Below are positions 18,539 through 23,525 of a DNA stretch of 64,000 bases, in pieces (the stretch's first letter is position 1; each line of letters starts with the position of its first letter). The notes under the pieces were generated by a model, which saw only the letters and a program-made list of their open reading frames with translations, had not been told where the DNA came from and searched no databases. Origin of the DNA: Candidatus Poseidoniales archaeon (GTDB lineage Archaea > Thermoplasmatota > Poseidoniia > Poseidoniales > Poseidoniaceae). Where the stretch lies: the NCBI GenBank assembly GCA_003602415.1, contig QQSK01000009.1:3891-67890 (forward strand), in the 5' to 3' direction. A program made the translations under genes and the position numbers.

Positions 18539-19387
18539 TTGATGGGTTGGACTTATGCTTGTAAAGTGATACGACATGCTGTGTTGGGGGGAATTATAGC
18601 AACCGTTGTCCTTCTGGCAGCATTGTTTGGTATGCTAAAGTGGAGAGCGGAGGAGTTTGACAGAACTTCTCTAATTTCTCTCTCAATCGGTATAATGATG
18701 CTATGGATTATTCCATGGGGGATGTTCATCATAATTCCGTTAGCACTTGCGATTTCATTTGTTAGCCCTGCAGGAAGGGAAGAATGGTCCAGATTCAAAA
18801 ATAGACGAATAGCGATAAGTTTGGTATTGCTAATTATTTTGAATTCATTTGCACTTTATCCGGTTTCTACGCCTGAAGCACCTCCTGAGTGGGGCGAACC
18901 AATTGCAACCGAAAACCCCCATGCAGCAGCGTGGCCAGCTAGTGAGCAATTCACTTGGCTACACGATGGTGCAGTGATTGGCATTGTAAATATCAGAACT
19001 CCACATACTTTCAGTTCATGGGGACAAGACTCCTCTAGTATTTCTTTAGGAGTTATGATGGGAGTCCACGATCAAAGAATGCGCCAATCAATCGAATCTA
19101 TGAATTCGTTTATTCCTGGAGTTTCTATCGATCCAGATACATTTACTTTGTACGAGGTCGAGACCGAAGGTGAACACCTCTATGGGGATGAAGAGTTATT
19201 CATCGCAAGGTTTGATGTTAAGAGAGATGGTTTCGATGCAACTCTTGCAAATGTTTTGGTTGTAGGCTTTCCAAATGCTGGTGGAGAGTTAACTATTCTT
19301 TCAATCACAAGGCCAATCACATCTTCACAAAATGATGTATTCGAAGAAAAAATCGTGATACAGTACGCTGATTATAAATTGGCATGA
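18539..19387 (+). CDS. Hypothetical membrane protein (N-terminal TM bundle plus soluble domain)
   Basis: 282-aa ORF with 3-4 hydrophobic N-terminal segments. The start may be ATG 18542. Confidence 0.7.
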   Translation: MMGWTYACKVIRHAVLGGIIATVVLLAALFGMLKWRAEEFDRTSLISLSIGIMMLWIIPWGMFIIIPLALAISFVSPAGREEWSRFKNRRIAISLVLLIILNSFALYPVSTPEAPPEWGEPIATENPHAAAWPASEQFTWLHDGAVIGIVNIRTPHTFSSWGQDSSSISLGVMMGVHDQRMRQSIESMNSFIPGVSIDPDTFTLYEVETEGEHLYGDEELFIARFDVKRDGFDATLANVLVVGFPNAGGELTILSITRPITSSQNDVFEEKIVIQYADYKLA

Positions 19388-19401
19388 GCATAAATATTAA
19401 T

Positions 19402-19418
19402 TTTTAGGGCAACCTAAA
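19402..19418 (+). promoter_or_regulatory. Palindromic operator-like box 1 (TTTAGG-GCAA-CCTAAA), resembling DtxR/SirR/MntR-family boxes
   Basis: Perfect 6-bp inverted repeat with a 4-nt spacer, immediately downstream of the AT-rich TAAATATTAA (19391-19400) and upstream of the transferrin-like gene. Confidence 0.65.
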
Positions 19419-19435
19419 CCTTATGTATGTCCGAC

Positions 19436-19452
19436 TTTTCGGGCACCCTAAA
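19436..19452 (+). promoter_or_regulatory. Operator-like box 2 (TTTTCGGGCACCCTAAA), a direct repeat of box 1
   Basis: 15/17 identical to TTTTAGGGCAACCTAAA at 19402-19418, 34 bp downstream of it and ending 14 nt before the ATG. Confidence 0.6.
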
Positions 19453-19466
19453 TCGGTGACGATACG

Positions 19467-21668
19467 ATGACAAATACGAAGACAATTTTGATGATTTTTC
19501 TAATGTGCACAGCATCTTTAGCAGGCTGTTTAGGTAGTGACGAAAACGAAGAAGAAATTACAAGCAAGTGTTCTGGTGATGAACTGGTGATTGCGTTTGA
19601 GGTAAAAGAAGACATGAATGCTGATGATATTCAGAACCCTCAGCAAATTGCAGATTATCTATGTGAAAAATTAGGCATGGATGTCAGCATCTACAATGTG
19701 GGGAGTTCAGGATTAGCAATGGAAGCACTCAGATTTGGCAATGCGGACATTGCAATGAATATCGATGGTGGTCCAGCATGGGTCGGATGGAATGCATACG
19801 GTTTGGATGTTATGGCTGCTGATACAAAGAGCGATGGCCGTGCATACTATGATGCACATGCATGGGTAAAAGCAGGTTCAGAAATTGCAGAGGCACACCT
19901 AGATGGTGATGACTCGACAGATCCTTTCTCATTACTAGCAGGCAAAACCTCTTGTCACACAGGATGGTTGAAGTCAGCTGGAATGTTGATGCCTATGGGT
20001 TACATGATTGGTAATGGATATGTTACCGTTCAAGGTGATATGTCTGATACTGAAACCCTGAGGACTACAATCAACCATTATTTCGATGGAAGTACTGGTG
20101 CAGGAAATGCTGCATCAATTCCTGAGAGTGGAGCTCTATACTCAGGATACGATGGCGCTCTAGAGTGCTTAAGTTCTGGCTATGGAGATGTGGCATTTGC
20201 TAAGGATTCAACTCCAGCAGGTTACTGCGCTAATGAAGATGCAACAGAGAATCAAGAATGGTGTCTTGACATGTCTGAATATGTAGCACTTCCAAAGTTT
20301 GGTTCATCACCAAGCCATTCGATTATGTTTAATGACGATGTTTTGGATGACGATAAGGAGACTCTAATCAAGGATGCATTAGTTGCAATGAATGATAATG
20401 AAGAAGGTCTATCCATATTGAATAATGTGCTTGGTACTGAAGCAATCATTGCTACAGATACTGAAACTCATTTGGGCACTTATGGTGCAGCATTGATGAA
20501 CATCCCTGGGATTTCCAGTAAGTACGGAAATGCCTTCGCTGACGGTACACAAACAGGTGCGATAAAGTCCACAATTAACATTGCATATTATTTGGCAGAT
20601 GATTCGGAATCTAACGCACAGGCACAAGGAATGGCTGATAGACTTGAGGCAGATTTAGGGGTAACTGTGAATCTTTATGATGTTTCATCTGAGGGTATGA
20701 TTATCCAAGCGCTTCGATTTGGAAATGTGGATATAGGTTTCCTTGAGGGCGGTCCTGCATGGATTGGATGGAAGGAATATGGGCTATCTGTAATGGCCGT
20801 TGAAACTACAACTTCTGATGGTGCTACACATTACAATGCCTCAGCATGGGCTCTGAACGGGTCGGATATTGCTAACGCGCATCTTGACGGCGATGATTCA
20901 ACAGATCCTTTCGCTCTTTTAGATGGAAAGACCTCCTGTCACACAGGATGGTTGAAGTCTGCGGGCATGTTGATGCCTATGGGTTATCTAATCAAGAACG
21001 GTTATGTTACTCCAGTTGGCGATACAAGTGACATCAATTCCTTGAGAAACACCATTGACACCCATTTTGATGGCTCTACAAGCAATGGTAATGCTGCCTC
21101 AATTCCTGATTCTGGAGCACTTTACTCCGGTTACAGTGGAGCGATAGAGTGTCTAAGTTCTGGATACGGAGATGTAGCCTTTGCTAAAGGAGATGATTTC
21201 AGTACTCCACACAAGTATTGTGACAATGATGATGAATCAGAGAATGAAGAATGGTGTCTTGAAATGGATGAATACGTTCAATTGCCATCTTTCGGACAAT
21301 CTCCTAGCCATCCATTAATGTACAACCCAGATATGTTGGATGTATACACTCGAAATGCAATTCTAAATGCAATGCTAAGTTGGGGTGACGAAATGTGGGT
21401 TGAGGATTATCCAATGGGCAATCAAACATATACTGGATGTTACAATGTCGTAACTCATCAAGTTGCAGATATTCCATCCAATCAGTGTGGTAGTGAGATA
21501 ATCTCGGAAGTAACTTCGAAAGGATACAGATTAGTTGCTGGAAACAGCCAGAATCACTTAGGTAGTTATTCTGATCTATTAGGGTCGATCCCAGGTCTGT
21601 CTGAGTACTACCATTCTTCTGACAAATATGGAATCTCTGATGCAGAGTCAGGTCAGCAGCAGGATTAA
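19467..21668 (+). CDS. Bilobal transferrin-family substrate-binding lipoprotein (likely auto-annotated as PhnD/phosphonate-binding)
   Basis: Lipobox LAGC (C21). Each lobe has transferrin motifs: IDGG/LEGG, YxAxAWxK-like, GKTSCHTGWLKSAG, YSGYxGAxECLSSGYGDVAFAK and PSH. Confidence 0.88.
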   Translation: MTNTKTILMIFLMCTASLAGCLGSDENEEEITSKCSGDELVIAFEVKEDMNADDIQNPQQIADYLCEKLGMDVSIYNVGSSGLAMEALRFGNADIAMNIDGGPAWVGWNAYGLDVMAADTKSDGRAYYDAHAWVKAGSEIAEAHLDGDDSTDPFSLLAGKTSCHTGWLKSAGMLMPMGYMIGNGYVTVQGDMSDTETLRTTINHYFDGSTGAGNAASIPESGALYSGYDGALECLSSGYGDVAFAKDSTPAGYCANEDATENQEWCLDMSEYVALPKFGSSPSHSIMFNDDVLDDDKETLIKDALVAMNDNEEGLSILNNVLGTEAIIATDTETHLGTYGAALMNIPGISSKYGNAFADGTQTGAIKSTINIAYYLADDSESNAQAQGMADRLEADLGVTVNLYDVSSEGMIIQALRFGNVDIGFLEGGPAWIGWKEYGLSVMAVETTTSDGATHYNASAWALNGSDIANAHLDGDDSTDPFALLDGKTSCHTGWLKSAGMLMPMGYLIKNGYVTPVGDTSDINSLRNTIDTHFDGSTSNGNAASIPDSGALYSGYSGAIECLSSGYGDVAFAKGDDFSTPHKYCDNDDESENEEWCLEMDEYVQLPSFGQSPSHPLMYNPDMLDVYTRNAILNAMLSWGDEMWVEDYPMGNQTYTGCYNVVTHQVADIPSNQCGSEIISEVTSKGYRLVAGNSQNHLGSYSDLLGSIPGLSEYYHSSDKYGISDAESGQQQD

Positions 21669-21849: not shown

Positions 21850-22587
21850 GTGGCTAAGTTTGGGGGAATTAATTTGTCGAGCAGCGAAGAAGTCCTCCAC
21901 AAAACAGAGGATTCGGATAGTACATCTGAATCAGGTGCCCTAGAATTGCGAAATCTATCCGTTGGGTATGCTGATGCATTGATTTCGGAGATCAATGTTA
22001 GTATAGTTCAAGGTGAAACTATAGCAATTCTAGGGTCCTCTGGCATTGGAAAAACCACTTTGCTGAGGACGATTGCAGGCTTGATTCGCCCTCTTGAGGG
22101 AGAAGTGATTCACGATTTCCCTAAGAGGAGTGGAATCGGATATATTCCTCAAAGACTAGGACTGATCAGGCACTCAAGCGTTAGAAGCAACGTAGCTATT
22201 GGTGCTCGGACTAGAAAACCGAAATGGTATCCTGCATTATTCCCGCTTGGAAGTGAATTGAACTCAGATATAGATTCAGCATTAGCAGAATTGAGTATTG
22301 GAGAATATGCCAAAACTCCTGTAAGAATTCTATCAGGTGGACAACAGAGACGAGTTGCAATTGCAAGAGCATTGGTCCAGAAACCAAAACTGATACTTGC
22401 TGATGAATTTTTGGGTGAGTTAGATAAAGAGAATGTAGATTCTATAATTCAGGCAACTAAGAAACTGATTTCTGAAACAGGTTCCACACTCATCATGGTT
22501 GAACATCATGAATCTCGAGCATACCAAATTGCAGACAGAATCTTGCGAATTAAGGATGGTAAGATTGTCGAAGAGGTGAGCCAATGA
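21850..22587 (+). CDS. ABC transporter ATP-binding protein, PhnC-like
   Basis: GSSGIGKT, LSGGQQRRVAIARAL, LADE, VEH. The segment YIPQRLGLIRHSSVRSNVAIG resembles PhnC. Confidence 0.9.
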   Translation: MAKFGGINLSSSEEVLHKTEDSDSTSESGALELRNLSVGYADALISEINVSIVQGETIAILGSSGIGKTTLLRTIAGLIRPLEGEVIHDFPKRSGIGYIPQRLGLIRHSSVRSNVAIGARTRKPKWYPALFPLGSELNSDIDSALAELSIGEYAKTPVRILSGGQQRRVAIARALVQKPKLILADEFLGELDKENVDSIIQATKKLISETGSTLIMVEHHESRAYQIADRILRIKDGKIVEEVSQ

Positions 22588-23525
22588 ATAACAAATTCAT
22601 TATTGCCTCGGTAATCTTGCTTTCCCTGACCTGGGTTTTCTTAGATGATTTAGTTGATGATTGGGGTCAAATCGAAAGTGCGCCTGATAGACTTGAGACA
22701 TTTTTCTACGAAGATTTGTGGCCGCCTGATTGGTCGGTTCTTGAAGCAGAGGAATGGGTTGATGGAACTCTTCACAAACCAAACGGTGAACTTTGTACAG
22801 AGAGTTACGAAATATTCTGTTCGAAGGCTTGGACTGGAATGGAAATTACGATTAAAATGGCTTTTATTTCAACCTTAATTGGTTTCATTATTTCAGTGCC
22901 GCTTGCTTCTCTATCTGCTAATAATCTGGTTCCTCTACCAATCGCTATACCTGCAAGGATAGTTCTCGCAGGGTTGAGAAGTCTGCCTAGTATCATCTGG
23001 GCCCTTCTATTCGCAATCGCCCTAGGTTTTGGTCCATTGCCAGGTATTCTAGCTATGACTCTCTACACTATTGGCTATCTAGGAAAATTGCAGTATGAAG
23101 CAATGGAAGGCATTGCAAATGCTCCTCTTGAATCGGCTATGGCGATGGGCCTTACTCATTCTGAGCGACTAGTCCATGTTGTTATCCCTGAGTCCAGCAA
23201 CGATCTTCTCAGCCAACTAATGTTCATGTTCGAATATAATGTAAGACATGGAACAGTTCTAGGATTAGTAGGTGCAGGCGGAATTGGAATGTATATTGAT
23301 AATTACATCAATCCACCATTTGCTTATGACAAAGCCTTCGCGTTGTTAATTGTTGTATTCGTAGTTGTAGTAATCATCGATCTATTGTCGATGTTCGCAC
23401 GCTCTTTTGTTACTGAACAAGGTGATGTAAAGCGACCAAAATGGTGGACTGTATTGCTACCTGCTGGATTTGCAGCTGACTATTATAACAAATCCAAAGA
23501 CTCGGACTCTGAAGAATCGGAGTAG
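22584..23525 (+). CDS. ABC transporter permease, PhnE/PtxC-like
   Basis: RSLPSIIWALLF..GFGPLPGILA, EAA-loop region (EAMEGI..PLESAMAMG), FEYNVRHGTVLGLVGAGGIG. ATGA overlap with the ATPase gene. Confidence 0.9.
   Translation: MNNKFIIASVILLSLTWVFLDDLVDDWGQIESAPDRLETFFYEDLWPPDWSVLEAEEWVDGTLHKPNGELCTESYEIFCSKAWTGMEITIKMAFISTLIGFIISVPLASLSANNLVPLPIAIPARIVLAGLRSLPSIIWALLFAIALGFGPLPGILAMTLYTIGYLGKLQYEAMEGIANAPLESAMAMGLTHSERLVHVVIPESSNDLLSQLMFMFEYNVRHGTVLGLVGAGGIGMYIDNYINPPFAYDKAFALLIVVFVVVVIIDLLSMFARSFVTEQGDVKRPKWWTVLLPAGFAADYYNKSKDSDSEESE

Follow-up and report, generated by a model that had tools for sequence, protein, structure and literature searches.

The stretch of DNA analysed here (the window) comprises 64,000 nucleotides of the genome of a marine archaeon of the order Poseidoniales (C22:3891-67890 in an assembly of 1.89 Mb, 22 contigs and 43% G+C), and contains three consecutive forward-strand genes of a putative ABC-type import operon. 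The first of these (19467-21668) encodes a 733-aa, two-lobed substrate-binding protein matching the Pfam families Transferrin and Phosphonate-bd, and is followed by genes encoding a PhnC-like ABC ATPase (21850-22587), which falls under the equivalog cut-off, and a PhnE-like ABC permease (22584-23525), which scores 215.6 bits against a cut-off of 216.7. Matches to the NCBIfam models for the binding protein PhnD and the ATPase PhnC lie far under their cut-offs. Upstream on the same strand is a gene (18539-19387) encoding a 282-aa membrane protein with no match in Pfam, which ends 16 nt before the first of two palindromic boxes. The conserved C-terminus of this upstream protein (…DVFEEKIV…) precedes the boxes in many relatives of the same genus, and the gene pair is thus syntenic.

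Box 1 (TTTAGGGCAACCTAAA, 19403-19418) is a 16-bp perfect palindrome that is conserved in orthologous promoters, and box 2 (TTTCGGGCACCCTAAA, 19437-19452) differs from such a palindrome by a single arm mismatch. Written out, box 1 reads TTTAGG-GCAA-CCTAAA, a perfect fit to the one-dimer inverted repeat TTAGG-N4-CCTAA, and box 2 reads TTTCGG-GCAC-CCTAAA, one mismatch from TTTAGG-N4-CCTAAA. Tandem boxes had been described at this position in an earlier, sequence-only reading of the window, and the sequence confirms them: the 17-mers TTTTAGGGCAACCTAAA (19402-19418) and TTTTCGGGCACCCTAAA (19436-19452) are identical at 15 of 17 positions and lie 34 bp apart from start to start, and the first contains the perfect palindrome. 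When one mismatch or fewer is allowed, the pattern occurs twice in the window, against 0.15 occurrences expected, and none of 100 shuffles of the window yielded two matches. Throughout the 1.89-Mb genome, matches to TTTNGGGCANCCTAAA are confined to box 1 and box 2. Similarly, in a scan of the genome with a 22-nt position matrix derived from 51 sites of related loci, box 1 ranks first (26.6 bits) and box 2 second (24.9 bits), followed by a third-best site of 18.5 bits at C4:70950. The two boxes are not chance occurrences.

A predicted TATA box (TTATGTAT, 19421-19428, forward strand) sits between the two boxes, and a Shine-Dalgarno-like GGTGA (19455-19459, forward strand) is located 7 nt before the ATG. 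Thirty unique box pairs precede binding-protein or Fea1 genes; measured between centres, the boxes are 34 bp apart in 22 of them, 33 bp in six and 35 bp in two, and alignment of the 22 unique 34-bp-spaced pairs yields, when anchored on box 1, the consensus TTTAGGGcg.CCTAAA-ctaTATgtA.g...gac-TTTTaGGGCg.CCTAAA-ccgGa, in which the TATA-like ctaTATgtA (70-99% A+T) directly follows box 1. In related promoters the start codon is found 10-16 nt after box 2, and in 17 of 30 an SD-like motif (GGAGG/GGTGA-type) is present no more than 16 nt after it. The TTTCGG variant of box 2 recurs in eight close orthologues. Since the window's genome encodes TBP, a protein restricted to archaea within the control set, archaeal promoter rules apply. 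The distance from the centre of an archaeal TATA box to the transcription start is usually about 26 nt, and on this basis transcription should start near 19450, within the 3' arm of box 2. Accordingly, box 1 would adjoin the predicted TATA element on its upstream flank, at the place of the BRE, and box 2 would cover the stretch from that element to the predicted transcription start.

This arrangement amends one part of the sequence-only reading, in which box 1 was placed between a TATA-like TAAATATTAA (19390-19400, forward strand) and the ATG. Box 1 does precede the ATG, but the conserved TATA-like element is the one at 19421-19428; the boxes would therefore flank the predicted core promoter, with box 1 not downstream of it. 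The A/T-rich TAAATATTAA, whose role is uncertain, is conserved in close relatives only. In two of these (G012 and G022) a third box, ATTAGGGGGCCCTAAAT, is present 25 bp upstream of box 1 (L006:1412-1427 and L009), and TAAATATTAA lies between this extra box and box 1. In the window's genome the 3' end of the upstream gene (stop codon 19385-19387) takes the place of the third box, which is lost.

The occurrence of the box beyond the window was assessed by searching 61 related genomes with the binding protein and reading the upstream regions. In every one of the approximately 28 loci that include the upstream region, one to three boxes precede the orthologous or paralogous gene; the form TTAGGG-N2-CCCTAA is found just before the genes for two-lobed orthologues as well as single-lobe paralogues, both within the same genus and in other families. 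In the resulting matrix of 51 sites the arms (T T T A G G and C C T A A A) are nearly invariant, and the centre between them is variable and G/C-leaning. Of 121 genomes of the order, 98 contain the exact pattern TTTAGGNNNNCCTAAA (TTTAGG-N4-CCTAAA), with 213 occurrences in all; the reversed control pattern is found 39 times, in 33 of the genomes. In the genomes whose site surroundings were read, namely five of a sister genus and six of another family, the sites are nearly always intergenic and located 10-130 nt ahead of a start codon.

The genes behind these sites, assigned by means of Pfam, NCBIfam and BLAST to annotated references, form a regulon of iron genes that is seen in two of the order's families. 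Box-bearing uptake genes include several paralogues of the transferrin/PhnD-like binding protein, Fea1 (PF07692, "low iron-inducible periplasmic protein"), the iron permease FTR1 and a 754-aa Peptidase_M28-ZIP fusion. Additional targets are flavodoxin, a 4Fe-4S ferredoxin, a divergent pair consisting of a NifU-like gene and SufC (TIGR01978, over the cut-off), ferrochelatase and glutamyl-tRNA reductase (hemA). Seen as singletons were RmuC, a type I phosphodiesterase-family protein, a Rieske oxygenase, a CoA-transferase and large CarboxypepD_reg proteins. Of roughly 20 target types only the type I phosphodiesterase is phosphorus-related, and among the targets examined there are no pst, phoU or C-P-lyase genes and no Nramp-type (MntH) gene.

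Exact pattern matching in the window's own genome returns the two boxes only, and the matrix adds a single site, C4:70950-70971, located 60-80 nt upstream of a gene for a 91-aa 4Fe-4S ferredoxin (C4:70617-70889, reverse strand), with a TATA-like ATTATAT following some 20 nt downstream of the site; in another genus the orthologue of this ferredoxin likewise bears a box. The regulon is thus small in the genus of the window, and the link to iron had to come from relatives. Single boxes are found at the ferredoxin, suf and heme synthesis genes. Iron-replete cells would be expected to express such genes rather than silence them, and the regulator may accordingly activate some targets and repress others. 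It is a matter of speculation that it activates at the ferredoxin box, as TroR does at dpsA. The ferredoxin gene is located some 4.3 kb from the gene for the regulator described below, and in two other genomes (G043 and G103) the regulator gene likewise has boxes about as far away.

Several of the box-bearing genes deserve mention in their own right. Genes for the M28-ZIP fusion are found in two genomes of a sister family (L157:165-2429, reverse strand, in G103; L162:2547-4811, forward strand, in G108), in both cases with a box 38-39 nt before the start. The transferrin receptor of eukaryotes also has the protease-like M28 fold, and the fusion is a candidate receptor-permease for iron. Proteins of the Fea1 family (PF07692), 380-620 aa in length, are common in the order, and almost all of their genes have one or two boxes (L065, L066, L070, L077, L139, L149-L154), often standing head to head with genes for unannotated 460-490-aa or M28-domain proteins. 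The phosphodiesterase gene (L070:6520-9300, reverse strand, in G076) encodes a 926-aa protein of the type I phosphodiesterase/nucleotide pyrophosphatase family and has a box 39 nt before its start. Some phosphatases require iron, and this need could be what links the gene to the box. Large CarboxypepD_reg proteins (more than 800 aa) are found behind one or two boxes at three loci (L067:4054-6480, L142, L161) and may belong to the iron regulon as surface proteins.

A candidate regulator is present. The genome of the window contains one gene of the DtxR family, as the sequence-only reading had anticipated: C4:75299-75958 encodes a 219-aa protein that scores over both relevant Pfam cut-offs (PF01325 and PF02742). 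No Fur is encoded in this genome. The gene for this regulator does not adjoin the operon, and its orthologues are found, usually in single copy, in 120 of the 121 genomes of the order; this near-universal presence means that co-occurrence with the box cannot discriminate. The protein is composed of HTH, dimerisation and SH3-like regions, and its residues 11-213 align with residues 9-221 of DtxR in solved structures, end to end and including the SH3-like tail. In DtxR numbering, the ligands of the primary metal site are Met10, Cys102, Glu105 and His106, and those of the ancillary site are His79, Glu83 and His98. The archaeal protein retains H83, E87, H100, C104, E107 and H108, corresponding to H79, E83, H98, C102, E105 and H106 of DtxR/IdeR, and has Glu12 at the position of Met10, where orthologues in the sister family keep Met. 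Its best NCBIfam match is the MntR model of the Thermococcales (88 bits, far under the cut-off of 350). With a Glu in place of Met10 and a sub-threshold MntR match, metal selectivity is not readable from the sequence alone. The recognition helix, SPASATEM in the regulator of the window, is conserved as SPAS(A/T/V)TEM even where overall identity drops to 33-40% in another family. Autoregulation was also considered and is unsupported, there being no box before the regulator gene in the window's genome and no matrix match of at least 10 bits near C4:75959-76000.

Taken together, these data make it highly probable that the two boxes are iron-responsive operators through which the genome's single DtxR-family metalloregulator (C4:75299-75958) represses the import operon. 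Each 16-bp palindrome TTTAGG-N4-CCTAAA would bind one dimer of the regulator. When Fe(II) is sufficient, metal-loaded regulator would occupy both boxes and deny TBP, TFB and RNA polymerase access to the promoter; under iron scarcity the regulator, now in its apo form, would dissociate, allowing the transferrin-like binding protein, the ATPase and the permease to be made. We infer the identity of the binding protein, the metal dependence and the direction of regulation. The boxes are very probably sites for an iron-sensing repressor of the DtxR type because the same box precedes iron genes order-wide, and this distribution speaks for an operon that imports iron, not phosphonate. Several expectations of the sequence-only reading can be judged in this light. 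Its premise that DtxR-family proteins bind TTAGG-N4-CCTAA palindromes agrees with the one-dimer site of IdeR/DtxR (PMC8464063) and with the motif of a haloarchaeal TroR (PMC10783522). The suggestion that a genome scan would place the box at iron genes held, with ferredoxin found here and flavodoxin, Fea1, FTR1, SufC, ferrochelatase and the ZIP fusion found order-wide, as did the preference for metal over phosphonate uptake, the recurrent box targets across the order being iron genes; clustering at phosphate genes is not seen, with a single phosphorus-related type among about 20. Repression by Fe(II) or Mn(II), also proposed there, can be narrowed, with the content of the regulon favouring iron over manganese and repression itself being presumed.

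An operator that responds to iron might nonetheless be bound by a transcription factor of some other family. Such an arrangement would be compatible with a regulator gene that is unlinked to the operon and so widespread that its co-occurrence with the box is uninformative, but it is unlikely in view of the box itself, which agrees in half-site and spacing with the site of a single IdeR/DtxR dimer and with the motif from ChIP-seq of TroR. Moreover, the matrix built from the marine sites recovers TroR-bound promoters of Haloferax, the recognition helix of the marine regulator is shared with a TroR-like protein, and no Fur is found in the genome. Were a DtxR-family protein accepted as the binder, it could still be a manganese sensor of the MntR/SirR kind and the operon a manganese importer repressed by Mn(II). 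The sub-threshold match to an MntR equivalog as the best NCBIfam model, the Glu at the Met10 position in the regulator's family and an SH3-like tail resembling that of Haloferax SirR all point that way, and yet we regard the proposal as very unlikely. The co-regulated genes, among them Fea1, FTR1, flavodoxin, ferredoxin, SufC and ferrochelatase, are iron genes, and no Nramp-type (MntH) gene is found among the targets examined. Sites of the Fe type are distinguished from those of the Mn type by a Cys/Met pair, and the regulator keeps the Cys at the position of DtxR C102, with orthologues in the sister family keeping Met10 also. The boxes, in addition, match the motif of TroR, this being the motif, rather than that of SirR, with which they were compared.

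Two further explanations were considered. Because box 1 begins 16 nt past the stop codon of a same-strand gene, after a run of T, and each box could form a 6-bp hairpin, the palindromes might act at the level of RNA, either as terminator hairpins of the upstream gene or as part of a structured 5' leader. This is highly improbable: the arms are invariant and the centre varies freely, without compensatory changes; the mid-stem mismatch of box 2 (TTTCGG/CCTAAA) is itself conserved; and the boxes still precede the downstream gene where a different gene, or one on the other strand, lies upstream, and are found between divergent genes as well. Folding gives a z of only -1.97, which is not significant, and there is no match in Rfam. 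The remaining proposal, that the boxes define a phosphate-starvation regulon controlling a genuine phosphonate importer, would account for the PhnC and PhnE models being the best matches of the ATPase and the permease, and for the type I phosphodiesterase-family protein behind one box in a relative. We assign it almost no likelihood, since the recurrent targets are all iron genes, no pst, phoU or C-P-lyase gene is among the targets seen, and of the phosphonate models only PhnE comes close to its cut-off (215.6 versus 216.7 bits), PhnC and PhnD remaining far under theirs.

If iron-responsive repression by the DtxR-type protein is accepted, the value of the operator lies in what it marks, namely a culture-free outline of the iron regulon of abundant, uncultured marine archaea. 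The box constitutes gene-independent evidence that a PhnC/PhnE-like ABC system with a Phosphonate-bd protein belongs to an iron-starvation response, and the regulon supplies testable candidates for iron acquisition in iron-poor surface water. In practical terms, TTTAGG-N4-CCTAAA beside a TATA box offers a simple tag for annotating genomes and reading metatranscriptomes. A more far-reaching idea, which the data favour by a narrow measure, is that one DtxR-type regulator and a 16-bp box define the whole iron regulon of the order, built from eukaryote-like uptake parts: the two-lobed transferrin, Fea1/phytotransferrin-like proteins, FTR1 and the M28-ZIP permease fusion. Were this to be the case, the box would serve as a computational tag for unknown iron-acquisition genes, for instance those for the unannotated proteins of 460-490 aa beside Fea1 and for the large surface proteins with a CarboxypepD_reg domain, and "phosphonate transporter" calls in these archaea could be re-assigned to iron uptake. 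No paper mentioning both Poseidoniales and DtxR was found.

The operator is of a type already known, that of DtxR, IdeR and TroR. In bacteria, each subunit of IdeR/DtxR reads one CCTAA, and a consensus formerly given as the 19-bp TTAGGTTAGSCTAACCTAA can be shortened to 14 bp, TTAGGNNNNCCTAA, to which a single dimer binds (PMC8464063). The actinobacterial half-site CCTAA is that of the marine boxes, and the 14-bp one-dimer site matches box 1 exactly; the proteins likewise agree in their three-domain layout and in retaining H79, E83, H98, C102, E105 and H106, and the repression of iron uptake that IdeR/DtxR exerts when iron is replete is the role proposed for the marine regulator. Several differences set the systems apart. 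The classical 19-bp IdeR/DtxR operator is occupied by two overlapping dimers on opposite faces, whereas the marine locus has a pair of distinct palindromes, each of one-dimer size, at a distance of 34 bp and with G/C-rich centres (GGG-NN-CCC). Furthermore, the bacterial operators are placed on a sigma-70 promoter and the marine boxes on an archaeal TBP/TFB promoter, and the family of the marine regulator, unlike DtxR, has Glu at the Met10 position. Treponema TroR likewise belongs to the DtxR family; it represses an ABC importer of metal, and its operator is palindromic (PMC2628430). Its operator was set aside as a comparator, the sequence given in the probes of that study being unrelated and of the TTTTGATATATCAAAA type (PMC2628430).

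The nearest counterpart is found in the haloarchaea. ChIP-seq of the DtxR-family TroR of Haloferax volcanii yielded the motif TTTAGGC-NNN-CCTAAAANAN (TTTAGGC-NNN-CCTAAAA), and the promoter of the siderophore genes carries tandem TroR sites about 30 bp apart, either of which suffices for iron-dependent repression of a reporter (PMC10783522). This motif is nearly identical to the marine TTTAGGg-NN-cCCTAAA, both conforming to TTTAGG-N4-CCTAAA, and in both systems the sites stand in tandem, some 30-36 bp apart, before iron-uptake genes and within iron regulons. The resemblance extends to a direct scan: over 40 kb of plasmid pHV3 (67.5% G+C), the marine matrix finds four positions of at least 12 bits, against an average of 0.02 in shuffles. 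One lies 60 nt before dat of the siderophore operon, in the promoter used for the reporter assay (PMC10783522), a second is found elsewhere in the same intergenic region, and a pair 36 bp apart precedes the adjacent gene for an ABC binding protein.

On the protein side, DtxR-like paralogues of H. denitrificans were used as proxies for H. volcanii TroR. Four such genes are present, and one encoding 150 aa, located 38.8 kb from an SH3-bearing SirR-like gene, is taken to be the TroR orthologue because this spacing matches the distance from HVO_0819 to HVO_0863. The recognition helix of the marine regulator (SPASATEM) is closest to those of the TroR-like protein (SPASANEM) and the L130 protein; that of the SirR-like protein is TPPTVTSM. 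The best overall BLAST match of the marine regulator is the SirR-like protein (32% over 189 aa), with which it has the SH3 tail in common. The fourth DtxR-like gene of H. denitrificans (L131, G149:C17), encoding 144 aa, has three matrix matches (14-22 bits) within 1 kb and may be a TroR-repressed paralogue of the Idr type. Alike as they are in motif and recognition helix, the two systems differ in build and setting: the marine regulator, some 219 aa long, ends in an SH3-like domain and has the canonical DtxR metal ligands other than Met10, and the Haloferax TroR-like protein, of about 150 aa, is without both. Sites in Haloferax are reported to lie approximately 100 nt upstream of start codons (PMC10783522), compared with 15-65 nt for the marine boxes, which flank the predicted TATA element. 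Finally, the genes under control in Haloferax serve siderophore synthesis, whereas those of the marine archaea serve uptake of the transferrin, Fea1 and FTR1 type.
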